A DNA stretch of 64,000 bases from Mustelus asterias. Lineage: Eukaryota. A program made the position numbers and the translations under genes. Each line of letters begins with the position of its first letter. The stretch's first letter is position 1. The stretch covers positions 36,456,001-36,520,000 of the forward strand of contig NC_135809.1 in NCBI RefSeq assembly GCF_964213995.1. Reading direction: 5' to 3'. Below the pieces are notes generated by a model. It worked only from the letters and a program-made list of their open reading frames with translations. It had not been told where the DNA came from and did not search any database. Below are positions 36,430 through 61,731 of this stretch, one piece after another.

Positions 36430-39400
36430 AAGCTTAAGGAAGTGAAGTCAGAGATGGAATGGGTAATCACCAGTCAGAAAAAGTGGGGCAGGCAGGAAGT
36501 CAGTGAAGCCCCAGAAAGCATCTCACTCAAGAACCGTTTTTCTGTTGAGAAATGGAGATAGTGACAGTTCCTCTGGGGAGTGCAGCCAGAGCCAAGTTCA
36601 CGGCACTATGGGTGGCTCAGCTGCACAAGGGGAAGGAGTAAGAGTGGAAGAGCAATAGTGGTCAGAGATTCGATAGTGAAGAGTGCAAATAGGTGTCACT
36701 GCGACTGCAGAGGTCACTCCAGGATAGTGTGTTGCCTTCCTGGTGCCAGGGTCAAGGATGTCACTGAACAACTCCAAGACAACCTGAAGGAAGAGAGTGA
36801 ACACTCAGAGGTCGTGGTTCACATAGGTACCAACGACATAGGCAGAAAGAGGGAGGAGGTCCCACAGAAAGAATTTAGGGAGCTGGTTGATTGAAAAGCA
36901 GGACCTCAAAAGTTGTAATTTCTGGATTACTCCCGATGAATTCAGGAACAGAAGGATAGGGCAGGTGAATGTGTGGCTGAAGAGATGATGCAGGAGAGAA
37001 GGCTTTAGTTTTCCCGGATCACTGGATCCATGTCTGGGAAAGGTGGGAGCTGTACAAGTTGGACAGTTAGCTCTTGAACTGGAATGAGACCAACTTCCTT
37101 GTGGGGAGGTTTGCTAGTGCTGTTGGGGGGGGGGGGGGGGGTTTAAACTAATTTGGCAAGAGTTGGCTCACAGTTTGTAGGTATGATCAAATATAGAACA
37201 AAAACGGAGTCAGTCTGGAAGGCAGGGCAAAGAGATGCATGTTAAGGCACAAGGGAATATGGCACGGTTGAATGGCATTTATTTTAATGCAAGCAGTCTT
37301 ACAGGTAAGACTGAGGAACTGAGGGCTTTGATTAACACATGAGGGTATGATGTTATTGCTGTCACAGAGGTATGGTTGAAGGAGGGGCAGGATTGGCAGT
37401 TCAGTATTCTGGGGTACAGAATTTTCAGACGAGATGGAGGATATAAAAAAGGACTTGGTGTTGCAATACCAAGGTGTCAATTACTGCAGTGAGGAGGGAT
37501 GATATCTCCGCAAATATCATTTGATATATATCAAATATATATATCAAATGAGGGCAGATGGGTGGAAGTTAAAACAAAAAGGGGCAATCATGTGGCTGGA
37601 CATGTACCATAGGCCCCCAAACTGTCAGGGAGAGGTAGAAGAGTAAATACGTAGACAAATCTGAGAAGTGTTAAAATAATAGGCTAATAATAGTAGGGGA
37701 TTTCAACTTCCCCAATATTAATTGGATATTCAAAGTGTGAAAGGCTTTAGAGGGGGTGAAATTCTTAAACTGCATCCAGGTTTTTGAGCTTTTTGAGCCA
37801 GCACACAGAAAGTCCTGCAAGAGAGGAGACTTTTTAAGGAATGAAGCCGGGCAGGCGGTGGAGGTGTCAATGGGGTAGCATTTCGGGAATAGTGACCATA
37901 ACTCGGTAGGATTTAAGGTAGTTATAGAAAAGGACAAAGATGGACTGGAAATAAGGTTTCTGGGGGATGGCTGATTTTAAAAGGATAAGACAGGATTGAG
38001 CCAAAGCGAACTGGGAGTAACTACATGTCGGAAGATTCACATCAGAATGGTGGGAGTCATTCAAAGATGAAATACAGAATGTACAATGCTAACATGTTCA
38101 AATAAGGGTAAAGGGTGGAACCAAGTGCAGAGAACCATTGATGCTTTAGGAGTACAGAAAGCGCAAGGGGTACTTAAAAGGAAAGAAATTAGGAGTGCGG
38201 AGAGGGGTCACTGGTGGGCAAAATCAAGGAAAATCCTAAGGTGCTCTATAAGTCTATTAAGGGCAAAAGGATAACCAGGGAACGAGTAGGACCCATTAGC
38301 GACCAAAATAGCAACCTGTGTGTGAAGCCAAAAGATGTAGGTGAGGTATTAAACTAATATTTTGCATGTGTTCACGATAAAAAAGGATGACGTAGGTATA
38401 GAAAGCAGGGATGGGGACTGTGATATAATTGAACAGATTAGCATTGAGAGGGAGGAAGTGTTAGCTGTTTTAGCAGGTTTAAAAGTGGGTAAATCCCCGG
38501 GCCTAGATGAGATGTATCCTAGGCTGCTGTGTGAGGCAAGTGGGGTAGATTTCTGGGCTCTGATGCTAATTTTCAAATCCTCTCTGGCCACAGGAGAGGT
38601 AAGATGTCTAACAACATCAGGTTAAAGTCCAACAGGTTTATAAACCTGTTGGACTTTAACCTGGTGTTGTTAGACTTCTTACTGTGTTTACCCCAGTCCA
38701 ACGCCGACATCGCCACATCACAGGAGAGGTGCCAGAGGACTGGAGGACAGCTAATGTGGTACTATTGTTCAAGAGACGGAGTAGGGAAAAAGCAGGTAAT
38801 TACAGACCAGTGAACCTAACATCAATAGTAGGGAAATTATTGGAAATATTTTTGAGGGACAGAATTAATTTCCACTTGGAAAGGCAAGGATTAATCAAGG
38901 ATAGTAAGCATGGCTTTATCAGGGGGAGATCATGCCTAATACATTTAATTGAATTTTTCGAGGAGGTGACTAGGTGTGTAGATGAGGGCAGTGCAGTTGG
39001 TAGTTTGCACGGACTTCAGTAAGGCTTTTGACAAGGTCCCACACAGGAGACTGATCAAGATGGTACGAACCCATGGGGTCCAGGCCACTTTGGCAAATTG
39101 CATCCAAAATTGGTTTAGTGGCAAGAGGCAGAGGGTAATGGTTAAAGGTTGCTTTTGCGGCTGGAAGCCTGTGTACCACAGGGATCGGTGCTGGGTCTCT
39201 TGCTGTTTGTAGTGTACATTAATGATCTAGATATGCATGTGGGGGAGTATAATCAGTAAGTTTTCAGATGACACATGAATTGATGGTGTGGTAAATAGCA
39301 AGGAGGAGAGCCTTAGATTGCAGGATGATATACATGGGCTGGTCAGATGGGCAGAACAGTGGCAAAAGTGTGAGGTGATGCATTTTGGGACAAACAAGGC

Positions 39401-40062
39401 AAAACAATACCCAGTGAACGGTAGTATGCTAGGAAGTAGAGCACCAAAGTAGAGGATCTTGGAGTACATGTCCAAAGATCCCTGAAGACAGCAGGACAGG
39501 AGGATAAAGTGATTAAGAAGGATATGGCATACTTGCCTTTATTAGCCAAGGCATAGAATATAAGAGGAGGAGGTCATGATGGAGCTATATAAAACAGTCA
39601 TTAGGTCCGCAGCAAATTACTTGCGCAGTTCTGGTCACCATATTTGAATGCACTAGAAAGGGTGCAGAGGAGATTCAACAGGATGTTGTCTGGGTTGGAG
39701 CATTTCAGCTATGAAGAGAGGCTGGGGTTGTTTTCCTTAGCGCAGAAAAGAGGTGGATAGGAAGAAACTATTCCCCTTAGTAGAGGGGTCAATAACTTGG
39801 AAGCATAGGTTTACGGTACGGAGCAGGAAATCTAGAGGGGATCTGAGGAAAAAACAGAGGATGGTGGGAACCTGAAACACTCTGTCTGAAAGGGGTAAAG
39901 GCAGGAACCCTCAGAATATTTAAGACACATTTAGATGAATACTTGAAACACCATTGCACACAAGGCTTCAGACCAACTGCTGGAAAAATGGGATTAAAAT
40001 AGATTGGTGTTTGATGGTCAGTGCAGACACGGTGGGCCTTCTGTACTGTAGAGCTCTATGAC
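36430..40062 (+). mobile_element. Near full-length decayed CR1 LINE (ORF1 SGNH/esterase-like + ORF2 remnants)
   Basis: ORF1 motifs AIVVRDSIVK, CCLPGARVKDV and VVHIGTNDIG. Frameshifted endonuclease/RT ([21 protein letters not shown]). CR1 tail ...CTCTATGA. Confidence 0.9.
38601..38718. mobile_element. Penelope-like fold-back mini-element (family P2) inserted in CR1 ORF2
   Basis: Hairpin centred at 38640/38641 with a ~38-nt tail. TSD CACAGGAGAGGT at 38589-38600 and 38719-38730. Confidence 0.85.
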
Positions 40063-40179
40063 TAATGTCTTTGACTAAGTTATTGGTCATCTGACTTACG
40101 TGGCTCGGAGTCGGACTTTGTTTTATAATGTTCCTGTGAAGTGCCTTGCGACATTTTATTATGTTAAAGGCGCTAAGAA

Positions 40180-40675
40180 GCAATTCAGAGAAGGTTTACT
40201 GGACTGAAAATTGGAATGTGTGGGTTGTCTTATGAGGAAATATTGGAGAGGCTAGGCTTGTATGCACTGGAATTTAGAAGATAAGAGATAATTTGATTGA
40301 AACATACAAGATCCTGATGGGTCTTGACAGGGTGGATGTGGAGAGGATGTTTCCTCTTTTGGAGAATCTCGAACTAGGGGGCCACTGTTGAAAAATAAGG
40401 GGTTGTCCAGTTAAGACAGAGATGAGGAGAATTCCTTTCTCTCAGAGGGTTGAGAGTCTGCGGAAATCGCATCCTCAAAAGGTAATGAAAGCAGAGTCTT
40501 TGATTATTTTTAAGGCAGAGGTAGAAAGATTCTTGATAAGGGGGTGAAATGTTATTGGGGTTAGAGGGAATGTGGAGTTGAGGTTACAATCACATCAGTC
40601 ATGATCTTATTGAATGATGGAGCAGCCTCGAGGGGCTGAGTGGTCTACTCCTGCTTCTAATTCTATGTTCATAGA
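40180..40675 (+). mobile_element. CR1 3' fragment
   Basis: CR1 RT C-terminus and 3' UTR ending TTCTATGTTC. Confidence 0.82.
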
Positions 40676-40859
40676 TAAGTTGCTAGCCATCTATGACCAG
40701 ATCAGGTTGGACCATATCTAGTGTGACTAAGCCTCATTCTCCTCTGCCAATAACACCCACTTTTCCAGATTGATAGTGGCTTTGTTTCTCCATTGCAAAC
40801 TGTCTCCACAAAGCTCTCTCTCCTCCAAGTGCAAGGAGAACAAGGATTAACAGTAATGC

Positions 40860-41617
40860 ACGCTCATGTAGCATCTTTTAAAAACATCCCACGGTGCTGT
40901 GCAGGAGCATTTAAAACTAAAATATGACACTGAACTTCATAGTTATTAGGTTAGATGATCGAAGGATTGGTCCAAATTGTTGGTTTTAGAGAGGGTCTAA
41001 AAGGAAGAAAGTGAGATAACGAGGTGGAGAGCTTAGGGCCTAAGAAACTGAAGGCACGGCCACCAATGGTGCAGCAATTAAAACTGGGGATGTTCAAGGT
41101 GATGAAGGAGCAGCGCTCCGAAAGCTCGTGATTCCAAATAAACTTGTTGGACTTTAACCTGGTGTTGTGAGATGTCTTACTGTGCTCACCCCAGTCCAAT
41201 GCATCTGACCTATGTGGCTCGGAGTCAGACTTTGTTTTATAATGTTCCTGCGAAGTGCCTTGCGACATTTTATGTTAAAGGCGCTAATGTTTATTATGTT
41301 AAAGGCTTTATTATGTTAAAGGCATCTCCATATCAAAGGTAGAAATAGGCAGTCTTAGTGATGGTACAAATGAGGTCGGAAGTTCTTCTCGGGATCAAAT
41401 GTGACAGCGAGGTTGCAAACAGACTGACTTAATCTGTTGCCAGGGAGAGAGATGGAGTCAGTAGTTAGGGAATGGAGTTCAGAGCAGGGACAAAAAAAAG
41501 GCTTCAGTTCTCCTAGTATTAGAGGAAATTCTTGCACATCTAGTACGAGATACTGGAAATGCAGTCTGATCATTTCAAAATAGTGCAGGAGTCAAGAGAG
41601 GTAAAATTGAGACTAAT
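40860..41617 (-). mobile_element. L2-clade LINE 3' fragment (with nested Penelope-like piece)
   Basis: IGGRAFSFLGPKL and CNLAVTFDPE, which are L2 C-terminal motifs. Confidence 0.75.
41099..41335 (+). mobile_element. Family P2 fragment with hammerhead-like core, interrupted by an L2-tail copy
   Basis: TGATGAAGGAGCAGCGCTCCGAAAGCTC...CCCCAGTCCAATGCATCT[insert]GCATCTCCATATCA. Confidence 0.75.
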
Positions 41618-42790
41618 TCATAAGAACATAAGAACTGGGAGCAGGAGTAGGCCATCTGGTCCCTCAAGCCTGCTCCGCCATTCAATAAGATCATGGCTGA
41701 TCTTTTTGTGGACTCAGCTCCACTTACCCGCCCGCTCACCATAACCCTTAATTCCTTTACTGTTCAAAAATGTATCTATCCTTGCCTTAAAAACATTCAA
41801 TGAGGTAGCCTCAACTGCTTCACTGGGCAGGGAATTCCACAGATTCGCAACCCTTTGGGTGAAGAAGTTCCTCCTCAACTCAGTCCTAAATCTGCTTCCC
41901 CTTATTTTGAGGCTATGCCCCCTAGTTCTAGTTTCACCTGCCAGTGGAAACAACTTCCCTGCTTCTATCTTATCTATTCCCTTCATAATCTTATATGTTT
42001 CTATAAGATCTCCCCTCATTCCTCTGAATTCCAATGAGTATAGCCCCAGTCTACTCAGTCTCTCCTCATAAGTTAACCCTTTCAACTCCGGAATCAACCT
42101 AGTGAATCTCGTCTGCACCCCCTCCAGTGCCAGAATATCCTTTCTCAAGTAAGGAGACCAAAACTGTACACAGTACTCCAGGTGTGGCCTCACCAGCACC
42201 TTATACAGCTGCAACATAATCTCGCTGTTTTTAAACTCCATCCCTCTAGCAATGAAGGACAAAATTCCATTTGCCTTCTTAATTACCTGCTGCACCTGCA
42301 AACCAACTCCTTGAGATTCCTGCACAAGGACACCCAGGTCCCTCTGCACAGCAGCATGCTGCAATTTTTTACCATTTAAATGATAGTCCATTTTGCTGTT
42401 ATTCTTACCAAAATGGATGACCTCACATTTACCAACATTGTACTCCATCTGCCAGACCCTCGCCCACTCACTTAGATTATCTATATCCCTTTGCAGACTT
42501 TCAGCGTCCTCTGCACACTTTGCTCTTTCATCCATCTTAGTGTCATCTGCGAATTTTGACACACTACATACACTTGGTCCTCAACTCCAAATCATCCATG
42601 TAAATCGTAAACAACTGCAGTCCCAACACTGATCCAAGGCACACCACTAGTCACTGATCGCCAACCAGAAAAACACCCATTTATCCCCACTCTTTGCTTT
42701 CTGTTAGTTAACCAATCCTCTATCCATGCTAATACATTACCCGTAACACTGTGCCCTTTTATCTTATGTAGCAGTCTTTGGTGCGGTTGG
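41618..42790 (-). mobile_element. CR1 LINE 3' fragment (RT C-terminal, ORF 41714-42562)
   Basis: SKFADDTK...RPHLEYCVQFWSP...FFTQRVANLWNSLP, with a (TTCTTATG)n tail at the left end. Confidence 0.92.
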
Positions 42791-43219
42791 CTTATTGCTT
42801 CCACCCAATCATGATTTAAATGAATGGTGGAATAAACTTGTTCCCATGTTATATGTTCCACTCTTAGCTTGCCAATCATCGCCAGAGTATCTGCAGCAAT
42901 GGATTCTCTTTGTGACCTTTTCTCAAGATTTCGCCAATTCTTTACCAAACCACCAACCCTCTCTCCCTGCAACTGAAGGTGTATTTACCAATGGTGGAGT
43001 GATTAAAATCGGAGATGCTGAAGAGGCCAGAATTGGAGGAACAGTTGATTTGTACCGCAACTCCATTTACCCTTTTTGTTCCTTATCCTATGTACTCATT
43101 CCTCAAAAACTGAGAATATTGATTCAACTGAAAATATTTACACCAAGATCAATATCAGTGCAGACTTGATGGGCCAAAGGGCCTCCTCTGTATTGTATGA
43201 TTCTATGTACATACTTTTG

Positions 43220-45370
43220 TTGGCAAGAGTTTCAGATTTTGACTTATCTTGGAGGGTTGTGGAGCACAAAGAGATTACAAAGATAGGGAGAGGAGGCCAA
43301 GGAGGGATTTAAAACAAGTTTGAGAATTTTAAATCAAGATGTTGCTTGCATAGGAGCCAATGCAGATCAGCAAGCACAAGAGCACATCAACCTCTATGTC
43401 TCCATCATTTCCCTTGGGATGTTTTCACCACCTGTGTTGTCAGACTACTTGTCTGCTATTCACACTGGGTTAAGCTGCAAGTTCCTCCAGCTGAACACTG
43501 GGAAGATTGAGATCACTGTCTTTGGTCCCTGCCACAAACTTCATATCTTTGTCATTGATATTATCCCTCTCTCTGGTCCACCCAGCACCACTGCCCTTGC
43601 TGGCTTACATTGGTCCAAGGACCCATAACATCTCTAATTTTAAATTATCTTTATTTCCTTCTGGATCTCAGGCCATTGCAATGCTACAACCACCACCAAC
43701 CTTACAACTGCTTCCCAAAACTCTCCACTCCATCAACTCTGACCTCTTGTGCATCTCTTCCTTCCATTTTGACACCATTGGTAGCCCATGCCTTCAACAG
43801 TTTAGCCCTCATGCACTTGAATTCCCTGACTAAACTCCTCTGCACTTCCTCCTTCTCCTTCAAGAACCTCCTTGAAAGCAAATTCTTTGACTAAGATGTT
43901 AGTCACCAGGCTTAATCTTGTCTTTGGTTCGCCATCCATTTTTCGTTGATTACTTTTTCAACTTTACAGGTACTATCTAATAACAAGTTGCTGAATCTGT
44001 AAAGAGAAAACAGGTGCTTATCTTGATAATATATATCTAAAATGCTCACTTATCTTTTCCATCTATGGATACTAGCTGATCTGTGGCATATTTCTAGCAT
44101 TTACTGCAACAAAGCCTTTCTTACTGTTTTGATAGTTTTATTGTTATAATCTCCACATTTGAGATGAAACTTCGAATATGTATTAGCCATGAGAATTTTT
44201 AAGAATACAGCTAAATGTGAGGCCCTTCCAACTCACTGCAACTCTTTTCAGTCTCGCAATCCTCTGAGATCCCTGTGTTCCTCCATTTCCTTCCCTCCAC
44301 CACTGGTGGCTGTGCTTCAACTCTCCAGGTCCCAAGTTCTGGAATTCCCCTACTAAACCGCTCTGTCTGTCCACCCTCACTTCAGAAACAGCTTAAAACC
44401 TACCTCTTTAAATCAAACTTTTCATCAACCTACCTAATATCTTACGTGGCTTGGTATCAAATTTTGATTCTGAATTTTACATTGGGATATTTTACAATAT
44501 TAAATATGCTGCATAAATGCAAATTATTGTCAAAATAAAAGCATGCAGAGGTATGAAGAGAAATGTTTATTAAAAAATCTTTCTCCCAACAGCAGTTTTT
44601 AAGCAGTGAGTTCTTGGAACACTCCCATAATAAACACAGCTTGGCTGAGCCTCAGAGCTGAATGCTGAGTCACAGCTAAATTGGGTGGGTCACAAGCTGC
44701 ACTGGAAAATATTTCTTAAACTTTCAAGTCAGTCAGATGGCAAAGACCAACTTGTTCTTGTGGAAATTATGAACAGATGCAACAGAATCTGCATCTATTG
44801 TTTATGCATGAACATGATATAGCATAAAGTGGCTGTCTGAAGGGCAAATTTACTTCATCATTCCATATCCTGGCCCCTCTCTAAAATCTCGGGTTCACCG
44901 GATATGACAGACCAGGAGATCCACAATGACTTATTTTAATATACTAAAGTCCTCTGTCAAAGGCTGTCCACTTGCACGTCTAACATTGCCCGTCTTCACC
45001 CCATCATTCGTCCATTTATGTACATAATGGGTCCCTCCACGTTTAATTACTCTCTACTTCGGTCCTTGCTGACTTTTTGATGTTCCACTTTGTCCTAAAC
45101 TCGGCTGCTTGTATGGTAACCCATACCAAGATTTGTTCGTCCATCACCATAACCCTCAATGACCTATATAGAAACCAGTCCACCTCTATCCTGCCTCAAC
45201 TCTGCAAGCCCCCGCCCAAACTGTGTCTTCATCTAACTCCTGTCTCCTTTCTGTCTATCCTCTGTTCAGCCCCAACACTGAAACTAAAACTGTCAACCAA
45301 CTAACTCGCACTGATTTTCCTGAACTCTGTCTTTCCTCCTCCCATTTTCCTCTTAAGAACCTTCTATAAA
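43220..45370. mobile_element. Cluster of decayed L2 fragments (both orientations)
   Basis: FLQLNTGKIE and LAGLHW motifs, plus L2-type tails ending ...ATAAATGCAAATTATTG. Confidence 0.65.
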
Positions 45371-45379
45371 TCCACTACA

Positions 45380-47280
45380 TTTGAACAGGAGGAGGTCATT
45401 TAGCCTCTTGGACCTGTTCCACTACTTGAGATCATAGCTGATCCTAGATCTCACTCCCCGCCTTTGCCTCATATCTTTCAATACCTTTGGTAAATAAAAA
45501 TCCATCAATTTGGATTTAAAAGCAACAATTTATCTTGCATCAATTGCTGCTTGTGAAAAAGCATTCCAAAGTTCTACCAGCTTTTGTATGTAGATATGGT
45601 TTCTAATTTCACTCCTGAAAAGGTCATTCTCTCTCATTTTTAGACTATGCCACTAATTTAACTCTTGGGAGTACAGGTATCCTTCCTAAGGTGTGATGTC
45701 CAAAACTGCTCAGCAGTCTCTCAGGTGTGATTTAACCAGAACTTTTTAAAGCTAGAGTCTCTGGACTCTTTAGATTCTTGGATATAAAGGGCAGCGTTCT
45801 GTTAGTCTTTTTGATTATTTTCTGTACCTATTTGCAACATATTAATGATCTTATGCGCCTGGGCCACAAGTCTCTTTTGACTTCCACTGTTTCTAGCTTT
45901 TGCCTGTTCTAGACCAAAGTAGCTAACCTCACATTTACCTCCACTGAAATCAATTTGCCACAATTTTCACCATTCACTTAATGTCCATCCATGCTGTTTA
46001 TAATACCGGCTATTTTTGTGTTATTGGATAGAAGGCCACATATCCAAATTTGCCAATCTAAATCATTAATAAATATAGTGAATATGTGAGGTCTCAATGC
46101 AGATCCATGCAGGAAATCACTTCACATCCTGCCAGTTAGGGTACCTAATTATTATGTCCATTCTGTCTCATGCTGCCCAGCTAATTTCCTAACCAGGCAA
46201 ATAATTTGCCTTCAATCTCATGAACTTCAACTTTAGACTTTAACTAACATTCTCATGAGAGGGACCTTATTAAATGTCATCTAGAAATCCATAGACATCC
46301 CCATTACTTTCATCATTAGTTTTTTAAAAAATCAATCAGGTGTCACTGAGGCTTTATGAATCCATATTTGCTCCCTGATTAAGGTTTTCAGTCACTCTAT
46401 TCTTAATTATGGACTCTAGTAATCTCCAAACAACAGATGTTAGACTAACTGATCCATAATTCCCTGGATTCCCACTGTCAACTTTCTAAATAGCAGAATG
46501 ACATGCACAATTTTCCCAACCTCAAAGAACAAATCAAGAGAATTTTCCAATTTTATAGTTAAGAGTATCTCGAATGTTCTAACCTAATTTCTTCAAAACT
46601 CGGGAAATAAACCATCTTTCCCATAGTTATCCTATTTTTTTCCCCTTTTGAAAGCTACAATTGAAATTTCCTCCAGCACCCTTTCAGGCAGTGATTCCGA
46701 ATCCTAATCACTCTCTGGGTAAGAAAGTATTTCCTCACATATCAGTTTAAATCTGTGCCCTCTGGTTCTCGACCCCTCCACTAATGAGAACAATTTTGCT
46801 CTATCTACTCTGTCTAGACCGCTCATGATTTTGAACACCTCAATCAAATCTTCTCTCAAATTTCTCTTCCTCAAGGAGAACAACCTCAGTTTTTTTCCAA
46901 TCCATTGATGTAACTGAAGCCCTTAATCCCCGACATCATTCTCGTAAATCTTTTCTGCAACCTCGCTACAGCTTTCTTATTACTTCCTAAAGTGCAGTGC
47001 CTTAAACTGGACACAATACTCCAGTTGAAGTCAAACCAGTTTTATAAGGATTAATCATGACTTATTTGCTTTGTACTCTATGCCTTGATTTATAAAGCCC
47101 AAGATCATCTAAGCCTTTTTAATCACTTTCTTAATCTGCCATGTCATCTTCCCTTTGCTGTGCCTCTTCAAACTTGTACCCTCGAGTTTATACTGCTTCT
47201 CCTTGTTCTTCCTGCTAGCATGTAATATTTCCCTGCATTGAATTTCATCTGCCACCTGTATTCCCATTCCATCAGCCAGA
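45380..47280 (-). mobile_element. Two decayed CR1 fragments
   Basis: Minus-strand CR1 tail/RT-like DNA at ~45380-46620 and ~46620-47280. Confidence 0.7.
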
Positions 47281-47284
47281 TCAG

Positions 47285-47800
47285 ATATGGAGTATTGTGC
47301 AGTTTTGGTCTCCACATTTAGGAAAGGACATACTTGCACTGGAGATGGTCCAACAAAGGTGCACTAAATTGATCCATGGGATGAGGGGATTATCATATGG
47401 AGAGAAGCTGAGTAAATTGGGCTTATACTCTCTGGAGTTTAGAAGAATCAGAGGCAATCTCATTGAAACATACAAGATTCTGAAGGGGCTTGAAGTGGAC
47501 ACTGAGAAATTGTCTCTGTTGGTTCAAGGAGTATAATACAGGGACGTAGCCTCAGGATAAGGGACCAATTATTTAGAACTGAGATGAGGAGATATGACTT
47601 CCCTCAAAGGGTTATGAATGTTCCATCATTGAATCCATTTAAAGCTGAGATAGACAAATTTTTGGTGTCTCAGGGCATCGAAGAATATGAGAAACGGGCA
47701 AGAAAGTGGAGCCGAAACTGAAGAACAGCCATTATCGTACTGAATGGCAAAGCCAGCTCGATAGGCCATTTGATCTACTCTGGTTCCTGCTTCTTGTGTT
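47285..47800 (+). mobile_element. CR1 3' fragment
   Basis: QFWSPHLGKDILALE...RGNLIETYKILKG. Confidence 0.85.
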
Positions 47801-47922
47801 CTCACCTCATCTCCAGGGCCTTCACTCACAGTGGGAAAGGCAGGAAGCAAGAGGAAGGGACCACGACGGCCAGGAGAGTCCCAGAGTAGCAGAGGTTGTG
47901 AACTGGAGAGTCAGGGCAGAAT

Positions 47923-48025
47923 AGTTCTGAAGAAAGATCATGACATGAAACATTAACTGTTTCTCTCACTCCAGAGATGCTGCCAGACCTGTTATGTATT
48001 GCCAGCAATTTCTCTGCTTATTTTT
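47923..48025 (+). mobile_element. Family P1 half-element with hammerhead-like core (47923-47958)
   Basis: AGUU CUGAAGA A AGAUCAUGACAU GAAA CA UU AACU, followed by ...AGATGCTGCCAGACCTG.... Confidence 0.65.
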
Positions 48026-48494
48026 AATGTTCTGAATATATTGTCAGCTCTTGCTCAGTTGATAAGTTGGTAGCACTGTTGCCCAATTAAGAAAGTTTGA
48101 ATCACAGAAAGTCTACTTCACTCATCATGCACCAGCCAAAAAACAAGCCACTTAGCCCAATCCCACTTCCCAGCATTTGGTCCATAGCCAGGTTACAGCA
48201 CTTGAACTGCATATCTAGATAGCTTTCAAGTGAGTTGAGGGTTATTGTCTCTCGAGCAGTGAGTTCTAAACTCTACTACCCTTTGGGTGAAAATATTTTT
48301 CCCTCACTGCCTTCTAATCTTCTACTGATACCATATTGGGAGCTGGGATGTTAAACAGGGCAGAGTGTCACTTATGAGTGAGCTTGCGAATTGAACAAAT
48401 TGAACTCGTACATTTTAAAAGAGTGGCAAGAATCAAAACACCTCACTCTTTTGAACCAGAGTGATCAATGCTCTTATGAACATTACTGAGTTGG

Positions 48495-48890
48495 AGTAAA
48501 AAGTTGTGAACTCAAGTGCCACTCATTCACATGAGCACAAAAATCTTGGCTGACTTTGCAGTGAGATATTGAGGGAGTGCATTACTGTCAAAGGTGTTGG
48601 ATTTCAGGTAAAGACCTTAATACAAGGCCGGGTCTGAAGACATAAAAGAACACGTCCAGGTATTTCTGGTGTCCAGTTCAATTTTATCCATCAATTAACA
48701 CCACTGAAAATAGATTATCTTATCACATCATTGCTGTTTGTGGAAGTTTGCTGTGTGCAATTTATCTGCTGCGTATCCCCTATGTTCCAACAGTGATGGC
48801 ACTTTAAACAGACTTCATCGGCCGTATAACTCTTTCGGACATCTTGCGGCTGTGAAAGGTTTAATAGAAATGCAAGTCTTTCTTTTCATT
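48495..48890 (+). mobile_element. Deu-domain SINE (SacSINE1/AmnSINE1-like), decayed
   Basis: GGCTGAC...TTGAGGGAGTGC...ATTGCTGTTTGTGGAAGTTTGCTGTGTGCAA...GTGAAAGG...AAATGCAAGTCTTTCTTT. Family recalled from consensus, not searched. Confidence 0.7.
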
Positions 48891-49561
48891 AAAGAATACA
48901 TACGGAGCAAGCAGGTGTGTGAAGAAGCAGATTTTACGGGCCAAATGGGTATTGCTGTGTTATGACCGCTTCCCATTTCTGAAATATCTTCCAGAATTAC
49001 AACTTTACAGGATCTCTACTATCTTCCTAGTCTGGCCTTTTGTATATCCATCAGTTAGCTAGCTTCTAAGCTTTGGAATTAACTCTCTTGCTTCCTTTAA
49101 AAGCACTCCTTAAAACTTATCTATTTGACCAAGTTTTTGATCATCTGTCCTAGCATCCCACATAGCAGAGTGAAAATTTTGTTCCACATAGTTTTAAATT
49201 CCTTGAGACATTTAAGTAAATTATATATGCTTCATAAATGCAAGCTGTTATTGTTATTGGTAAGGAAATCAAGTGATATAAAGTTTAAAGTTTTATTATT
49301 TATTCGTGTCACAAGTAGGCTTACACTGCAATGAAGTTACTGTGAAAATCCCATATATTGAGTTACGGCAAGTAAATGGAGTTGATGTACAAATCACTCA
49401 TGTTCTGAATGAATAGCAGAGTGGGTCTGAGGGATTGAATGGCCTCCTCCTAGTCCTATGGTTGTAAGAATTACCAACCTTTGCAAAGCAGGTCAGAAAA
49501 AAGATGGCGTGGTTTTATCGAGGTGCACCCCTAACAGCTCCATAATGCTCTGTGGGTTGTT

Positions 49562-49697
49562 ATGATGTGGAGATGCCGGCGTTGTACTGGGGTAAACACA
49601 GTAAGAAGTTTAACAACACCAGGTTAAAGTCCAACAGGTTTATTTGGTAGCAAAAGCCACACTGTTGGACTTTAACCTGGTGTTGTTAAACTTCTTA
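49562..49697. mobile_element. Family P2 fold-back mini-element
   Basis: Inverted arms plus tail. TSD CTCTGTGGGTTGTT at 49548-49561 and 49698-49711. Confidence 0.85.
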
Positions 49698-50249
49698 CTC
49701 TGTGGGTTGTTCCCAGGGATGCAGAGATAAACATTAACTGCCAATGGAGGACCATCAACTCAAGGAAAGCATTTTTGGTCAGTCTGAAATGAATTTGTTG
49801 GTCCTCCAGTGCCAAGAGCTGTCAATGGCCCAAGGTTCAGGAATACATGCCAAGGAACACACTGCCACAAAAGGACATGAGGCTCTCTCACTATGGTCCA
49901 CCAGGGGTCTGAAAACTGTATAAAAACTCAAGCTATAATTTTGACATGCGACATTGTAATTAATTGGAAATGTAGTAACATACAGCAGTAAGAAACATTG
50001 TTTTGCACTTAATGTAATGTAAACGTTGAACTGTCATGTAATATTTGTATAATTTTATGAAGATATGGGGGGGGATAAAGTCCGAATGATTAAGCTCCAG
50101 ACACACTGGCTGGAGAGGCGACAGGGAGCTAACGCCCAGAGAGCAGGAGCCCGGTCGGTAAAGGAGGGAGACTCTGGGGGAAGTTGGTGCCCCGGTCACC
50201 CGCTCACAGCGGCTTCAGCGAAGGAAACACACCCTTACCCCTCACTTAC

Positions 50250-50264
50250 CAGGAACTGGAACAT
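50250..50264 (-). CDS. STMP1: STMP1 coding exon 1 (15 coding nt, MFQFL)
   Basis: agaATG TTC CAG TTC CTG|gtaagt inside the CpG island. Human STMP1 starts MLQFL. Phase 0 joins exon 2 to give a 47-aa product. Confidence 0.9.
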
Positions 50265-50618
50265 TCTGCTCTCTAGACCGAGGTGTACACCTGGGCCTCG
50301 CTCTCACTCCGCCTTCTCCACACCGCCCAGCGCAAGAGTGCGCAGGCGCGCCCTCACTCCGTGGCGGCGGGCCGATGGCACCACCATGTTGGGAAGGTCG
50401 TTGCGCCCCTCCCCCCGGGTCAACAACAGGAATCCGTCTCCTCTCAAAACTTCACGGGAAAGAGGAGGTCAATGCGTGACCTTCCCAAGATGGCGCTGCG
50501 CTGGTGCCGTTGGCCTGACGCCATGTCCGGCTGGCAGCTGCAGTTTCCGGTTGCTGTGCAGCCGGCTGGCGAGAGTCAGTGAGGAGTGCTATCCTGAGAG
50601 GGCCGGTTCCAGCTGGGG

Positions 50619-50868
50619 ATGACGGACCGCGCTCCACTGCTCGAATACGAGGAAGGTCCCTCTGTCACCTTCCCGTCCTGGGATGGCACCAGCCCGGCTG
50701 CCGGCAACGGAGCCGGATTAGCGCCCGGCGTGTCCGGCGGCGGAGCTGCCGAGAGCTGGAGCCCGGGGTCGGAGCGGGAGGCGGCCGCGACTCCGGGAGC
50801 TCAGCAGCAGGAGGAGGAAGAGGAGCAGGTGGTGGCGGTGTTTGTGGTGACTTTCGACACCAGAGCAG
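50619..50868 (+). CDS. DENND11: DENN domain-containing protein 11 (KIAA1147/LCHN), coding exon 1
   Basis: MTDRAPLLEYEEGPS...EEEQVVAVFVVTFDTRA(G), then donor G|gtgaga at 50869. Matches human APLL..EGP and EEDQVVAVFVVTFDPRSG. Confidence 0.92.
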
Positions 50869-51071
50869 GTGAGAGGCCGGGTTCTCAACAGCAGCATTCC
50901 CCCCATACAGAGTCCGCAATTAAAATGGCTGCAGAGTCAACGGGAAGATGGCGGGGTATCCGTGACAGCAGCAGGAGGAGGAGGAGGTATCCATGGGGAC
51001 AGGGAGGAGGAAGGGAGTATCTGTGGTACTCGAGGGGGGCAGGGGATGGGTTGTCTGTCCCCTACTTTGGT

Positions 51072-51179
51072 AAGAGTTTTAACAACACCAGGCTAAGGAT
51101 CTTTATCCTGGTGTCTTTAGCCTGGTGTTGTTAGAACTCTTACTGTGTTTACCCCAGTCCAACGCCGGCATCTCCACAT
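51072..51179. mobile_element. Family P2 fold-back mini-element
   Basis: Inverted arms plus tail. TSD CCCTACTTTGGT at 51060-51071 and 51180-51191. Confidence 0.85.
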
Positions 51180-52133
51180 CCCTACTTTGGTCACAGCTAA
51201 GTGATTTTAATCTGCAACAAAATGTAGGATTGATGCCTATGTCCCTTTCATGTTATCGAGATGTAAAAAGTTCACTGCAGACCCAGTTGCTCGGGCGTAA
51301 CTTAGTCACAGTAAGAGAGAGAATACAACAGGTGATTGAAATGTCATTGTTCCTTTCATTGGAAGCCAGTTGGATTTGACTTAGATTGACCTCTGCCATG
51401 TAGAATCTGCTTAGATAAATGAATTATCCTGGAGTTTGTGGTGGACGAGATGGGAAGGGCACAGTAAGTCCAATGCTAGCATCTCCACACAAAATGGGAA
51501 AGGGTTGCTGCCTGATTGCTACCTGCCATCCTGCAAGTTCTGTTGGATGGTTGTGGCATTGGTTGCTTTTGAATTTGCCAAGAGTTGTATCCAAGATCAT
51601 AGTGTGCCGGAGTGAAAATGATATGAAATAAAGTATTATCACGTATTTAACATTAGATTAAATGAACAAGTGGGTGTTGTAATGCATTGAGCAGAGGAAG
51701 CCCAATGCTCTATCTACTCTGTTCTTCCAAATATGCCGTGGGTTTCCTTACTGTGATTCAAGGGACAGTAATCTTGTATTGTGTCAGCTTTCCTTGTAGG
51801 AATTCAGTGAGCCTTTTTAAAACCTTACCGTGCTTTGCTCTTGACTACTAATAGTAATCTGTTCTGCAATTCTATCAGCATTACTTGCCTTTCTTCCCAG
51901 TCCAGTCATCTATATATTTTGTGTAATAAACTGAAGATTGCTAAGTCGAGGATACCTTTTGGAATTGTGAATCTGAAGTTTTGGATATGTTCTTAGGGAA
52001 AAGGGAGTTTTGGGCAAGATAAATTCCAGGCCCTAATTGTTGCTGTCTGTCCCTCAATTAGAGGATGACGTCTACTCAGGATCACAAGTTTCTTCCATGG
52101 GTCTTCATGTGACTGAATAGGCTGATTCTCTAT

Positions 52134-53790
52134 TTGCGTATACTCCCTCCGAGTGTCTCGGAGGGAGTTGTTGACCCGTTAGAGAAAATCTCCATTACAA
52201 GGGAGGAAGTGTTAGGTTTTTTAGGGAACATTAAAATTGACAAAGCCCCAGGGCCTGATGGCATCTATCCTAGACTGCTCAGGGAGACGAGAGATGAAAT
52301 TTATGGGCCTCTGACGGAAATCTTTGTTGCTTCTTTGGACATAGGTGAGGTCCCTGAGGATTGGAGGATAGCGAATGTGGTCCCGTTGTTTAAGAAGGGT
52401 AGCAGGGATAACCCGGGAAATTATAGGTCGGTGAGCTTGACGTCTGTGGTAGGGAAGTTGTTGGAGAGGATTCTTAGAGATAGGATGTACGTGCATTTAG
52501 AACGGAACAATCTCATTAGTGACAGACAGCATGGTTTTGTAAGAGGGAGGTCGTGCCGTACAAATTTGGTGGAGTTTTTTGAGGAAGTGATAAAAACGGT
52601 TGACGGAGGAAGGGCCGTGGATGTCGTCTATATGGATTTCAGTAAGGCATTTGACAAAGTCCCATATGGCAGGTTGGTTAAGAAGGTTAAGGCTCATGGG
52701 ATACAAGGAGAAGTGGCTAGATGGGCGGAGAACTGGCTTGGCCACAGGAGACAGAGGGTCGAAGGGTCTTTTTCCGGCTGGAGGTCTGTGACCAGTGGTG
52801 TTCCGCAGGGCTCTGTACTGGGACCTCTGCTATTTGTGATATATATAAATGATTTGGAAGAAGGTGTAACTGGTGTTATCAGCAAGTTTACGCATGACAT
52901 GAAGATGGCTGGACTTGCGGATAGCGATGAGCATTGTCGGGCAATACAGCAGGATATAGATAGGCTGGAAAATTGGGCAGAGAGCTGGCAGATGGAATTT
53001 AATCCAGATAAATGCGAAGTGATGCATTTTGGAAGAAATAATGTAGGGAGGAGTTATACAATAAATGGCAGAGCCATCAAGAGAATAGAAACACAGAGGG
53101 ACCTAGGTGTGCAAGTCCACAAATCCTTGAAGGTGGCAACGCAGGTGGAGAAGGTGGTGAAGAAGGCATATGGTATGCTTGCCTTTATAGGACGGGGTAT
53201 AGAGTATAAAAGCTGGAGTCTGATGATGCAGCTGTATAGAACGCTGGTTTGGCCACATTTGGAGTACTGCGTCCAGTTCTGGTTGCCACACTACCAGAAG
53301 GAAGTGGAGGCATTAGAGAGAGAGTGCAGAGAAGGTTTACCAGGATGTTGCCTGGTATGGAGGGTCTTAGCTATGAGGAGAGATTGGGTAAACTGGGGTT
53401 GTTCTCCCTGGAAAGATGGAGAATGAGGGGAGATCTAATAGAGGTGTACAAGATTATGAAGGGGATAGATAGGGTGAACGGTGGGAAGCTTTTTCCCAGA
53501 TCAGAAGTGACGATCACGAGGGGTCACGGGCTCAAGGTGAGAGGGGCGAAATATAACTCAGATATTAGAGGGATGTTTTTTACACAGAGGGTGGTGGGGG
53601 CCTGGAATGCGCTGCCAAGTAGGGGGTGGAGGCAGGCACGCTGACATCGTTTAAGACTTACCTGGATAGTCACATGAGCAGCCTGGGAATGGAGGGATAC
53701 AACTGATTGGTCTAGTTGGACGAAGGAGCAGCACAGGCTTGGAGGGCCGAAGGGCCTGTTTTCCTGTGCTGTACTGTTCTTTGTTCTTTT
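52134..53790 (+). mobile_element. CR1 LINE, 5'-truncated, one frameshift
   Basis: RT ORFs 52134-53426 and 53249-53644; tail TGTTCTTTGTTCTTT. Confidence 0.92.
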
Positions 53791-53830
53791 ATATCTGGGT
53801 GCACATTGATCAGGGCATCCCACATCGCCT

Positions 53831-54163
53831 CGGGGAGGTGATGGCCTAGTGGTATTATCGCTAGACTATTAATCCAGAAACTCAGCTAATGTTCTGGGGA
53901 CCCGGGTTCGAATCCTGCCACAATGGTGGAATTTGAAGTAAATTAAAAACATCTGGAATTAAGAATCAATTGACCATGAAACCATTGTTGATTATTGGAA
54001 AAACCCATCTGGTTCACTAATGTCCCTTTAGGAAAGGAAATCTGCCTAGTCTGGCCTACATGTGACTCCAGAGCCACAGCAATGTGGTTGACTCTCAACT
54101 GCCCTCGGGCAATGAATGCTGGCCAGCCAGCAAGGCCCATGTCCCATAAATGAATTTTTAAAA
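53831..54163 (+). mobile_element. tRNA-derived SINE (third family)
   Basis: A box TGGCCTAGTGG and B box GGTTCGAATCC. The 3' tail GGGCAATGAATGCTGGCC...CCCATAAATGAATTTTTAAAAA is shared with the LINE tail at ~28215-28270. Confidence 0.75.
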
Positions 54164-55345
54164 AGTAGTGGGGTCCGGAGTGCAGGGTTAACTCCCTTTT
54201 CTTTCCTTCTGTACCACTGCTCTGCCTCCTCATTAAGACGTTGTCTTAAAACACGATACAGCTTGATGGACAAGTTGTCACCATTCTGAAGGATAGTAGC
54301 AAGCTCTTCCCAATCATTAATGTCAATGCTACCACACTTCAAGGAGGGCTTTGGGTTGGCTTTGAAGTGTTTTCTTTGTGCTCCCTTGGAATATTGGTCA
54401 CTTGAGCGTTGAGAAAAGAGGACCTAGCAGGGGGGGATGATTTTCGGCCTTCCAGGCAGAATCCAGTTCATTGAAGTTGATTTTACCACAGTTTTCCATG
54501 AATGCTTGTGGAGCTGGCTTCGAGAAGGACATTAACATTTGTTCCACGGCCTTTCATTAAATTCACAGGATGTGACAGAGGTATTGCTGCTGTAATCTTT
54601 CGAGCACTCTTACATTTTGTTGATACACAGCCTAGGTCTCACTGCAGTACAGGAGTGTGATGGTGACTATTGCTCTGTACACTTGGACTTCTGTTGACTT
54701 GCAGAGGCCTTTGTTGTCAAACATGCTGCTGTAGTTTGTAGAAGGCTGTGCTGGCACAGTTAATCCAGTCTGAAATCACCTCATCAATGGTGACTGTTAG
54801 AGAGATGGCCGCCAAATATTCCAAAGTGTCTCCTTCAACATTTCTGGGAGGTGAGTATCTGGCTGACCAGGTGCAAGTTGACATGAGTTTTGTTTTGGCA
54901 ACATTCAAAGACATGCTGAATTTCCTCTGTGCAGAACTGAAAAGAGTTGCTTGCAAATCTGGTGCAGGGAATGCATAGGAATGGATAATGTAGAGGTACT
55001 TCGGTTAACTTTGAAAATGGATTGGATTTAAAATCCTTCCAGCCTGTCCAACCTTGTATCACTTCAACCACTGGTCCCCTGACTTTAGCCTCCTGTGCAT
55101 GCCAGTTCCCCACCCTCATTTCTCTACTGCATCTTTAGTGCGAGAGATTTCAGTCGTTTTTTGAAACTCCTTCCCAAACCTTTGCACTTCTAGCTTTCAC
55201 CTCTCTGTTATGTCTAGTAGCTCTTGTACAAAGGACGGAGTGTCTGCTCTCGGGCACTTTTAGGCATTTTACATTGAAAGCATTGAGGTATTAGTGAATG
55301 TGTGTACTATAGTGAATGACTATAATGACTGCTGTTCCAAGTAAT

Positions 55346-55475
55346 CACAATAAGAGTTTTAACAACACCAGGTTAAAGTCCAACAGGTTTATTTGGTAGC
55401 AAATGCCACTAGCTTTCGGAGCGCTGCTGCTTCGTCAGATGGAGTGGATATCTGCTCACAAATAAGGAATACCAA
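55346..55475 (-). mobile_element. Family P2 element retaining hammerhead core
   Basis: Same AACAACACCAGGTTAAAGTCCAACAGG core. Direct repeat GTTCCAAGTAAT at 55334-55345 and 55476-55487. Confidence 0.78.
55406..55442 (-). ncRNA. Minimal type-I hammerhead ribozyme motif
   Basis: CCAU CUGACGA A GCAGC-AGC-GCUCC GAAA GC UA GUGG. The core is complete, stem I is CCAU/GUGG, stem II has one mismatch, and palindromic AGCU replaces stem III. Confidence 0.7.
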
Positions 55476-55662
55476 GTTCCAAGTAATACCTTCTAAGCAA
55501 TGATGCTTGCAGATATAGATAGTGTCTGGAAACATGATACATGATCTGTAGAAAAAATGAATAATTGGCACTTTAGATGTAGGTCGTTTTAACAAAGTGT
55601 GCAAACTCAGCTTAATCCCTCTGTTCTGAATGCTTCCACGTTTTGTTGCTGATTCTGGAACA

Positions 55663-55835
55663 GACCAAAGATGTGCAGGTAGGTGAATTGGCCATACTAA
55701 ATTGCCCCTTGGGGGTGTAGGGGGATTACCAGGATAAACACGTGAGGTTACGGGGATAGGGCCTGGGTAGGATTGTTGTTGATGTAGGCTCAATGGGCCG
55801 AATGGCTTCCTTCTGCACTGTAGGGGTTCTATGAT
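55663..55835 (+). mobile_element. V-SINE type A, 3' half
   Basis: CCAAAGATGTGCAGG...GGTTCTATGAT. Confidence 0.8.
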
Positions 55836-56789
55836 TTGGCCCTTCATGCCTGTTCTGCCATTCATGGCTGATCTTCTACCTCAACTCCACACTCGTGCAT
55901 ATCCACATATTCCATAGTTCCCTGGGTATCCAAAAATCTGTTGGCCTCAGTCTTAAATATAATTCTGTCTGACGAAAAGAATTCCAATGATTCAGAATCC
56001 TTTGACTGAAGCATTTTCTGCTCATAAAAACATAGAAAACTACAGCACAAAACAGGCCCTTCGGCCCCACAAGTTGTGCCGAACATATCTCTACCTTTTA
56101 GGCCTACCTATAACCCTCCATCCTATTAAGTCCCATGTACTCATTCCGGAGTCTCTTAAAATACCCTATTGAGTTTGCCTCCACCACCACTGACGGCAGC
56201 CGATTCCACTCGCCCACCACCCTCTGTGTGGAAAACTTCCCCCTAACATTTCCCCTGTACCTACCCCCCAGCACCTTAAACCTGTGTCCTCTCGTAGCAG
56301 CCATTTCCACCCTGGGAAAAAGCCTCTGAGAGTCTACCCGATCTATGCCTCTCAACATCTTATATACCTCTATTAGGTCTCCTCTCATCCTACGTCTCTC
56401 CAAGGAGAAAAGACCGAGCTCCCTCAGTCTATCCTCATAAGGCATGCCACTCAATCCAGGCAACATCCTTGTAAATCTCTTCTGCACCCTTTCAATCTTT
56501 TCCACATCCTTCCTGTAATGAGGCGACCAGAACTGAGCACAGTACTCCAAGTGGGGTCTGACGAGGGTCTTATATAGCTGCATCATTATCCCCGGACTCC
56601 TAAACTCAATCCCTCGATTGATAAAGGCCAGCACACCATACGCCTTCTTAACCACCTCCTCCACCTGCGGGGCCGATTTTAGAGTCCTATGGACCCGGAC
56701 CCCAAGGTCCTTCTGATCCTCTACAGTACTGAGTCTTTCCCTTTATATTGTACCTGCCAAAATGGACCACTACACATTTATCTGGGTTG

Positions 56790-59700
56790 GACCATTGGGA
56801 CCTCTTTAGGGGCAGGGGTGATCTGTATACAAAAAACGGGTGGAACTTGAATCACACGGGGACCAATATCCTGGCCGGTAGGTTGGCTAAGGTTACTGGG
56901 GAGAATTTAAACTAGATAGGTTGGGGGGAGGGGAGCTAGAAGAGTTGACTAGGATCAAGGAACTAATTGATGGGGTGGAGGATGCAGGGGTAAGGGGAAT
57001 TACAAAATTAATGGTAGAGGAGAGGGTGCAAGTGAATGAAGGCGGTAATTTAGATAAGGGAGTAGAGGGAGAGGGTGTTCGTGACTCATCAAAGCGGGTC
57101 CAGATAAAAGCTGGAATAAGGACACTTTGCCTGAATGCACGAAGCATTCGGAACAAGGTAAATGAGTTGATGGTGCAAATCAGCACGAGTGGGTACGATC
57201 TAGTGGCCATTACAGAAACGTGGCTGAAAGGTGACCAGGACTGGGAGATGAATATCCAGGGGTATCAGGCGTTTAGGAAGAATAGACAGGAAGGAAAAGG
57301 TGGTGGGGTCGCGCTATTAATAAGAGATAATATCAGGGTAGTACTGAGGGATGACATAGGCTCTGAGGAACAAAACGTGGAATCATTATGGGTAGAGATG
57401 AGGAATAGTAGAGGGAGAAAGACACTAGTAGGTGTGGTATATAGGCCCCCAAATAATAATGTTGAGGTAGGGAGGGCTATAAACAAGCAGATAAGGGATG
57501 CGTGTAAAAACGGAACGGCAATAATCATGGGGGACTTCAACATGCACATTGACTGGCAGACTCAAGTCGGTAAGGGTGGAATGGAGGAAGAGTTCTTAGA
57601 ATGCTGTCGGGATAGTTTCCTTGAACAGCATGTTACGGAACCGACGAGGGAACGAGCTATTTTGGATCTGGTATTGTGTAACGAGGTAGGTAGAATTAAG
57701 GATCTTATTGTGAAGGACCCTCTTGGGTCTAGTGACCACAATATGGTCGAATTTCTGATTCAGATGGAAGAGGAGAAAGTTTGGTCCCAAACCAGTGTCC
57801 TCTGTTTGAACAGAGGGAAATATGATAGGATGAGGGATGAATTGGCTAAGGTAGACTGGGAGAGCAGGCTGGCAGGTAGGATAGCTGAGGAACAGTGGAG
57901 GATTTTTAAGGAGATCCTTTTCAGTTCTCAGCAAAAATATATTCCAGCAAAAAACAAGGATTGTAAGAAAAGGGAGAACCAGCCGTGGATAACGAAGGAA
58001 ATAAAGGAGAGTATTAAAATAAAAACAGCTGCGTACAGAGTGGCCAAAAATAGTGGAGAAACAAGTGATTGGGAAAAATTTAAGAAACAACAAAGAGAGA
58101 CTAAGAAAGCGATAAAGAAAGGAAGGATAGACTATGAAGCTAGGCTAGCAATTAATATAAAAAATGATAGTAAAAGTTTTTATAAATATATAAAAAGGAA
58201 TAGAGTGGCTAGAGTGAATGTTGGACCCTTGGAGGACGAGAGGGGGGAGTTAATAGTGGGAAATGAGGATATGGCTGAGTCTTTAAATAAGTTTTTTGTG
58301 TCGGTCTTCACGGTGGAGGACACAAATAGTTTGCCAAATATTAACGATAGAGGGTTGGCAGCAGGAGAAATACTTAATACAATTAATGTTACCAGAGAGG
58401 CAGTGCTGGGTAGACTAATGGGACTGAAGGTGGATAAGTCCCCTGGTCCGGATGGAATGCATCCCAGGGTATTGAAAGAAATGTCAGAGGTAATAGTGGA
58501 TGCGTTAGTGATTATTTATCAAAACTCGTTGCATTCTGGGGTAGTGCCGGTTGATTGGAAAACGGCTAATGTTACGCCGCTGTTTAAAAAAGGAAGGAGA
58601 CAAAAGGCGGGTAACTATAGGCCGGTCAGCTTAACGTCTGTAGTAGGGAAAATGCTGGAATCCATTATTAAAGAGGAGATAGCAGGGCATCTGGATAGAA
58701 ATGGTTCGATCAATCAGACGCAGCATGGATTCATGAGGGGAAAGTCGTGCTTGACGAACATGTTGGATTTTTATGAAGATGTGACTAGGGCGGTTGATGG
58801 AGGAGAACCGGTGGATGCGGTGTTTTTGGATTTCCAAAAGGCGTTTGATAAGGTGCCCCATAAAAGGCTGCTGAAGAAGATTAGGGCACACGGAGTTGGG
58901 GGTAGTGTGTTAAAGTGGATTGGGGACTGGCTATCCGACAGGAAGCAAAGAGTCGGAATAAATGGGTGTTTTTCCGGTTGGAGGAAGGTAACTAGTGGCG
59001 TGCCGCAGGGATCGGTACTCGGGCCGCAACTATTTACCATTTATATAGATGATCTGGAGGAGGGGACGGAGTGTAGGGTAACGAAGTTTGCAGACGACAC
59101 AAAGATAAGTGGAAAAGTGAATCGTGTGGAGGACGGAGAAGATCTGCAGAGAGATTTGGACAGGCTGAGTGAGTGGGCGAGGATATGGCAAATGGAGTAT
59201 AACGTTGAGAAATGCGAGGTTATACACTTTGGAGGAAATAATAACAAATGGGATTACTATCTCAATGGAAACAAATTAAAACATGCTACCGTGCAAAGGG
59301 ACCTGGGGGTCCTTGTGAATGAGACGCAAAAGCCCAGTCTGCAGGTACAACAGGTGATCAAGAAGGCAAATGGGATGTTGGCCTATATTGCGAAGGGGAT
59401 AGAATATAAAAGCAGGGATGTCTTGATGCACCTGTACAGGGCATTGGTGAGGCCGCAGCTGGAATACTGTGTGCAGTATTGGTCCCCTTATATGAGGAAG
59501 GATATATTGGCATTGGAGGGAGTGCAGAGAAGGTTCACCAGGTTGATACCTGAGATGAGGGGTTTGGATTATGAGGAGAGGCTGAGGAGATTGGGTTTGT
59601 ACTCGTTGGAGTTTAGAAGGATGAGGGGGGATCTTATGGAGACTTATAAGATAATGCGGGGGCTGGATAGGGTAGAAGTGGAGAGATTCTTTCCACTTAG

Positions 59701-61727: not shown

Positions 61728-61731
61728 AGCT

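Follow-up and report, generated by a model that had tools for sequence, protein, structure and literature searches.

The 64,000-nucleotide stretch of Mustelus asterias contig NC_135809.1 analyzed in this work (hereafter, the window) carries five small insertions, E1 to E5, which, judging from their sequences, stand at the short extreme of a continuous size range of 5′-truncated copies of an autonomous Penelope-like element (PLE). All five had been proposed in the original prediction, made from the letters of the window; they are all present and mutually homologous, and no sixth copy of the family was found within the 64 kb. Four of them (E1, E3, E4 and E5) are flanked by exact direct repeats of 12-14 bp, as claimed. 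E1, E3 and E4 consist of two inverted arms (no strand is assigned to these units as a whole), one of which ends with a 38-nucleotide (nt) tail and the other without it. Positions in arms are given below relative to the predicted cut of a hammerhead ribozyme. E1 (38589..38730, including the 12-bp target site duplication, TSD, 38589-38600/38719-38730) joins a tail-less arm (38599-38641, minus strand) to a tail arm (38640-38720, plus strand, tail at 38683-38720); both end at +18/+20 and share a 2-nt palindromic overlap. In E3 (49548..49711, 14-bp TSD 49548-49561/49698-49711), the tail arm (49563-49662, minus strand) has its 5′ end exactly at the predicted cut (+1) and meets, with 1-nt microhomology, a tail-less arm starting from +26 (49662-49698, plus strand). 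In E4 (51060..51191, 12-bp TSD 51060-51071/51180-51191), the tail-less arm (51070-51096, minus strand) is followed by an 18-nt filler (51097-51114) and, 3′ of it, by the tail arm (51115-51180, plus strand). Folding corroborates the earlier description of these three copies as hairpins (z-scores of -12.7 for E1, -11.2 for E3 and -9.0 for E4, none of 200 shuffles folding equally well).

The other two insertions are single arms. E5 (55334..55487, minus strand, 12-bp TSD 55334-55345/55476-55487) is a tail-less arm (55346-55472) reaching about -63, with a minimal type I hammerhead motif (55406..55442, minus strand; CUGACGA...GAAA GC UA) that has one mismatch in stem II and a predicted cut between 55410 and 55409. 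E2 (41100..41335, plus strand) is a tail-type arm starting from -28, whose tail is split by another repeat (about 41202-41321, of which 41202-41287 is 92% like 40088-40176); it has no clear TSD, no flanking direct repeat of at least 7 bp having been found. Both non-hairpin copies had been said to keep the hammerhead core. This holds for E5, which has it whole, but not for E2, which begins at core U4 and is devoid of both C3 and the 5′ strand of stem I; none of E1 to E4 carries a complete ribozyme. E1 is integrated in a remnant of a reverse transcriptase (RT) gene similar to those of long interspersed elements (LINEs). Six empty sites paralogous to this locus each hold the target once, showing that the repeat flanking E1 is a true TSD. 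The same search for E3, E4, E5 and P1 (a member of a second family, see below) found no empty site, as their flanks have no homolog in the genome sample described below.

A genome search with E5 gave 44 matches from 40 scored of 1986 candidates. The longer copies extend upstream into one open reading frame (ORF) encoding an RT followed by a C-terminal GIY-YIG endonuclease (EN), with matches to RVT_1 (E 7.6e-6) and GIY-YIG (E 0.0018 and 0.00015) that were obtained on fragments and each lie just below the curated cut-off of Pfam. Homologs of this ORF have 772-1048 amino acids (aa) and carry PF00078, and protein records of Chiloscyllium and Mustelus contain pieces that are 79-85% identical. By eye, the translations show the CCHH motif of GIY-YIG, with its two cysteines in VYLIRCRKGCPEAWYIGE and its histidines downstream. 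The linker that separates RT from EN, PCHSNLCKTC, fits CX4CX2C and is of the Neptune type: according to PMC8557442, a CX2-5CxxC linker is present in Neptune and Nematis but not in Penelope/Poseidon. The pseudo-long terminal repeat (pLTR) and its 38-nt tail lie directly 5′ of the ORF at 15 of 30 ORF-start loci, the tail ending on the A of the ATG, and partial pLTR tandems were found at two loci (L229 and L236). Therefore, the assignment of E1 to E5 to hammerhead-bearing PLEs stands, since their arms run into the RT/GIY-YIG ORF and the motif belongs to the pLTR, and the autonomous partner that the original prediction called for has been found, linked to these arms. In contrast, they do not form a separate family of tiny elements: kilobase-long insertions share the head-to-head design of the stubs, including with arms of more than 1 kb.

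Scoring of 150 RT matches revealed several open frames of 878-927 aa, and identity between some copies reaches 99.6-100%, suggesting that the family is young and that intact members probably still exist. At 58876693-58879600 of contig C9, two long open frames of the element (837 and 886 aa) lie head-to-head, so that the design of the stubs is found there at nearly full length. The youngest subfamily (L141/L142, C10:30009820-30011675; L089, C4:80083916-80085806; L038) shares an insert of about 60 nt that is flanked by a duplication and lies just ahead of the ORF end and pLTR start, which may mark one recently active source. Contigs from other organisms have loose ends at the two 3′ positions described below, suggesting that the family and both of its ends extend to relatives.

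Abundance and ends were studied in an unbiased sample of 1.77 Mb taken at round-number positions of 16 chromosome-scale contigs, in which arms were mapped to 47 natural reference copies, self matches being excluded. This sample contains 123 insertions and 190 arms, i.e., about 68 insertions per Mb with a 3′ end or, scaled to 3.68 Gb, a rough estimate of 250,000 copies in the genome. Most insertions (85 out of 123) are shorter than 300 bp. The density of the window (five copies per 64 kb), which had been called high, matches this background. The 3′ ends are bimodal: 90 arms are tail-less (ending at about +60), 76 carry the tail (about +98) and 24 end elsewhere. Some tail arms (L253, L258) extend several bases beyond the ATG, indicating that the downstream site is not exact. 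All inverted neighbours are head-to-head, and no tail-to-tail pair was found among 128 clusters. Among the 54 head-to-head pairs, 51 were scored (three lacking the 3′ region were left out): 49 associate one tail arm with one tail-less arm, two have no tail and none has two tails. Furthermore, in a targeted set of 20 extra loci, picked solely for having a tail arm, none of the 13 visible partners carries a tail. Hairpins thus bring together one of each of two fixed 3′ ends. A TSD of 10-16 bp (mode 12-13 bp) flanks 37 of 46 head-to-head pairs, whereas a similar search found a repeat of at least 9 bp at only four of 300 random positions.

The 5′ ends were counted once per insertion, at the furthest position (n = 105: 85 random insertions passing a reliability filter, i.e., abutting arms or 95% identity, and the 20 targeted ones). 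They pile up at two places. The first lies at -30..-50, with 35 ends, as opposed to 14 over 49 nt of flanking sequence (p 3e-9, for an interval picked after inspection of the data), and a per-base rate about 10 times that observed beyond -70. In the TATA-bearing subfamilies, the modal 5′ end (39 arms) is located 31 nt after a TATA motif found near -66. A distance of about 31 nt is the usual spacing between a TATA box and the transcription start. Two long copies bearing the ORF start at -32/-33. This pile-up likely corresponds to the transcription start of the element; in Drosophila Penelope, transcription starts within the repeat region at the 5′ end (PMC2377424). Splicing of an intron with its end near -43 or +74 was rejected as the cause of the pile-up, since some subfamilies lack the AG near -43; no matching splice joint was found among the contigs compared.

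The second pile-up lies at the predicted cut, a position that was specified beforehand: five of the 105 ends fall at +1/+2 compared to 19 over 47 nt of flanking sequence (p 0.003, rising to 0.015 when one ambiguous case is omitted; E3 is outside these counts), and 11 ends lie at +1..+10 compared to one at -10..-1. This small edge hints that the ribozyme is used in vivo. The proposal that ribozyme-processed RNAs serve as templates could thus apply to a minority of insertions, but not in general, given the more numerous ends upstream of the cut. Natural copies of the pLTR display a minimal type I hammerhead with its core, a palindromic GC stem III and a covarying stem I, including a compensatory change between subfamilies (CCAT/ATGG versus TCAC/GTGG). 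Stem II and the cut triplet (UA, UU or UC) vary between subfamilies, and the +1..+98 leader is nearly constant. An Rfam scan of the window returned no hammerhead family at E<=1, giving only sub-threshold microRNA (miRNA) and other weak matches; the hammerhead assignment therefore rests on the motif and on PMC4209133, which describes minimal hammerheads of this form in metazoan PLEs. Whether such ribozymes cut in vivo is a question left open in the text of PMC4209133 and of PMC11167929.

Either arm of a pair may be the longer one: among 49 pairs, it is the tail-less arm in 21 (by more than 30 nt in six) and the tail arm in 13, the two being within 5 nt in 15. An initial excess of longer tail-less arms (18 versus 7) was discarded because it was caused by tail-less references, the figures becoming 21 versus 13 once tails were called directly. 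Arm lengths are nevertheless coupled, since only 4.3 near-equal pairs would be expected instead of the 15 observed (20,000 shuffles gave 13 at most; rho 0.61). Near-equal ends also occur outside both hot spots (+12/+12, -13/-13, -83/-81 and -56/-57), and other pairs are very unequal (-12/-262 and -469/-167) or do not overlap at all (one pair, +68..+98 versus -37..+60). Arms of a pair are concordant at 845 of 883 polymorphic sites, compared to 59% for random pairs; a comparison of each arm with its best match in another copy was set aside because it is biased by the best-of-N choice. Junctions show 1-4 nt of microhomology, short templated fillers or loop-less palindromes (several on a 2-nt overlap), and their centres do not recur between insertions. 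Such microhomologies, fillers and palindromes recall microhomology-mediated end joining. At L200 (C17/C22 block, B201 98511-98810 = L210:8511-8810), the filler that separates the two arms consists of 87 nt of the tail and the ORF start, sequence downstream of the normal start sites having been copied into the joint. A snap-back on ribozyme stem I was rejected as the origin of the junctions, since none of 38 pairs is in the register of this stem.

In our opinion, the stubs are probably twin-primed, 5′-truncated insertions of the autonomous PLE. The element protein would nick the two strands of the target at positions separated by about 12-14 bp, and each of the free DNA ends would prime reverse transcription: one from an internal start located about 60 nt beyond the hammerhead cut, the other from the ATG, 38 nt further downstream. 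Both cDNAs would be copied from one RNA, would run to its 5′ end or stall, and would then be joined head-to-head by microhomology-type end joining; PLE RTs have no known RNase H. Reverse transcription would often be initiated at the copy of the two sites that is present in the leader and run off the 5′ end of the transcript, likely the TATA/initiator start near -36 to -45, or the ribozyme cut in about 5-10% of cases. Copies would then be tiny because the start sites lie just 100-140 nt from this 5′ end; to obtain a full-length copy, reverse transcription of a tandem transcript would have to begin at its downstream repeat. Coupled lengths and concordant arms suggest, without proving it, that a single RNA serves as template. 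According to PMC11167929, the protein of an anole PLE both cuts and extends the two DNA strands in vitro, RT starts at two internal sites delimiting the tail, and a dimer is predicted; it is from joining the both-strand extension to the two starts that we infer twin priming.

Several points weigh against this scheme. TATA-less subfamilies (15 of the 47 reference copies) still pile up, a little more upstream, near -42..-48. Half of the sampled insertions (62 out of 123) have a single arm, so that the second primer would often leave no trace. The excess of longer tail-less arms over longer tail arms is not significant (p 0.23). Discordant polymorphic sites (n = 38) affect 21 of 60 pairs, with six in one pair, and private variants are shared about as often by real pairs (n = 14) as with the best other copy (n = 15); in fact, arm concordance cannot separate one RNA from two RNAs of the same subfamily. 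A later deletion of the palindrome centre could also produce near-equal arms or make either arm the longer one. As for the edge at the predicted cut, few ends are involved, and alignments could be clipped where subfamilies differ next to the cut; furthermore, in PMC11167929 the hammerhead proved dispensable in vitro and no RNA reads were found to end at the cut.

Four other explanations were considered. The original prediction invoked a fold-back (snap-back), in which the tail-primed cDNA turns back and is copied as far as a fixed point, stopping 38 nt before its start. Arms from the same subfamily, the near-equal 5′ ends and the junction palindromes, interpreted as self-priming in PMC3846280, would fit it. 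However, a fold-back demands that the tail arm reach at least as far as its partner, which contradicts the pairs with a longer tail-less arm, in particular those exceeding 30 nt, and the pair without overlap. Moreover, loop-less palindromes should be unable to close within one strand, no junction is in the stem I register, and 36 solo arms end at the tail-less site, which indicates that this site acts as a start by itself. We therefore regard the fold-back as unlikely. A self-primed hairpin on an antisense template, resolved by staggered endonuclease cuts leaving a one-sided tail, seems slightly less likely still. It combines the self-priming on an antisense template preferred in PMC3846280 with the endonuclease resolution to which PMC8557442 ascribes the tail, and accounts for head-to-head orientation, one-sided tail and coupled lengths. 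Nevertheless, PMC11167929 maps the limits of the tail to two RT starts on sense RNA, the very unequal arms would need extra steps, and pile-ups at a predicted sense start and at a sense-strand cut point to a sense template.

Twin priming could also use two RNAs held by a dimer, similar ends then arising from their shared transcript 5′ end. The discordant sites mentioned above favour this variant; however, many may result from CpG decay, and near-equal ends occur away from both hot spots, so that we give it a rather low probability, below that of the two hairpin schemes. Finally, small size and inverted ends are typical of non-autonomous DNA transposons with terminal inverted repeats (miniature inverted-repeat transposable elements, MITEs), the alternative named at the outset. 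This origin appears extremely improbable: TSDs are variable (10-16 bp), neither fixed nor short, ends are asymmetric, centres are not recurrent and, decisively, the insertions are continuous with a linked RT/GIY-YIG ORF.

Twin priming on one RNA, as proposed here, can be compared with several known systems. In LINE-1 inversions, both target ends prime cDNA synthesis and joining by microhomology gives the inversion, the second primer being used at a variable internal site and the arms having no overlap. Here, by contrast, both starts are fixed and the two arms are usually copies of one stretch, hence the hairpins. The unit described for canonical EN-containing PLEs (PMC3846280; PMC8557442) shares with that of M. 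asterias an inverted, 5′-truncated copy at the 5′ end, a TSD, a tail of 30-40 bp at one end, partial tandems, a hammerhead in the pLTR and a single RT and GIY-YIG ORF. It differs by the TSD (8-10 bp in the rotifer examples compared to a mode of 12-13 bp here) and by the position of the tail, located inside the ORF there and ending at the ATG here; furthermore, most copies are tiny here. PAc, a Poseidon element of Anolis (PMC11167929), also has two tail-bounding RT starts shortly downstream of the hammerhead; both strands are cut and extended, as we propose here. The element studied here has a Neptune-type linker instead, and a minority of its genomic copies end at the ribozyme cut, whereas no such ends were found for PAc; the main text of PMC11167929 draws no link from the two sites to head-to-head arms. 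Non-LTR retrozymes (bioRxiv 10.64898/2026.07.22.740005; PMC4209133), also known from a chondrichthyan, are likewise short, hammerhead-bearing pLTR derivatives. However, they form head-to-tail tandems thought to be based on circular RNAs, whereas the stubs are dispersed, head-to-head or single, and many lack a whole ribozyme. The text of the preprint describes tandem arrays and not head-to-head or single stubs. A retrozyme identity was rejected for E1 to E5, whose copies are not head-to-tail and of which four lack a complete hammerhead.

The window contains one member, P1 (14483..14737, no strand assigned), of what appears from its sequence to be an older, independent PLE family. It is flanked by an exact 10-bp TSD (14483-14492/14728-14737) and joins a tail arm (14493-14625, minus strand) to a tail-less arm (14616-14722, plus strand). 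The original prediction gave it the architecture of the first family, and this is the case, except that it turns back upstream of the ribozyme, so that both arms carry the hammerhead core. Its relatives (85 hits) show two 3′ end classes, with and without tail, and at least nine head-to-head pairs of the same design, confirming that a second family has independently followed this pattern. One of them lies about 450 bp behind a GIY-YIG remnant that is 31% identical to that of the first family and, by eye, several have a TATA motif upstream of the ribozyme. Elsewhere, the CpG-rich segment 50100-50870 likely contains a first coding exon, with its ATG at 50619 and a GT donor near 50870. The end of its peptide presumably resembles DENND11/KIAA1147; a Pfam search with this peptide gave nothing significant. 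E3 lies about 0.9 kb upstream of this ATG and E4 about 0.2 kb into the intron. Regions 8300-36100 and 55700-62500 are dense in repeats of 200-340 bp similar to short interspersed elements and in LINE 3′ ends, in both orientations.

The class of the element and its architecture (inverted arm, one-sided 38-nt tail and TSD) are already published (PMC3846280; PMC8557442). This work adds quantitative features: the near-obligate pairing of ends, the coupled arms, the likely start-site edge and the small edge at the ribozyme cut. Searches of the literature by titles and abstract openings (most subscription papers and Repbase being outside their scope) did not find Penelope twin priming, palindromic PLE stubs in sharks or ends at the cleavage site. 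Such hairpins can be mis-annotated as MITEs or as miRNA precursors, as illustrated by weak Rfam matches to mir-3015. The origin of inverted, one-tailed PLE insertions is called undefined in PMC8557442. It is conceivable, although we would not yet favour it, that the stubs record the PLE insertion cycle, with an obligate two-start twin priming on one RNA, a default product restricted to the leader and a class derived from ribozyme-cleaved RNA. If so, this last class would be in vivo evidence of cutting by minimal PLE hammerheads. Given the estimated number of copies and the apparently intact young elements, both this question and that of the inverted insertions should be testable in M. asterias, through end counts and assays on an intact copy.

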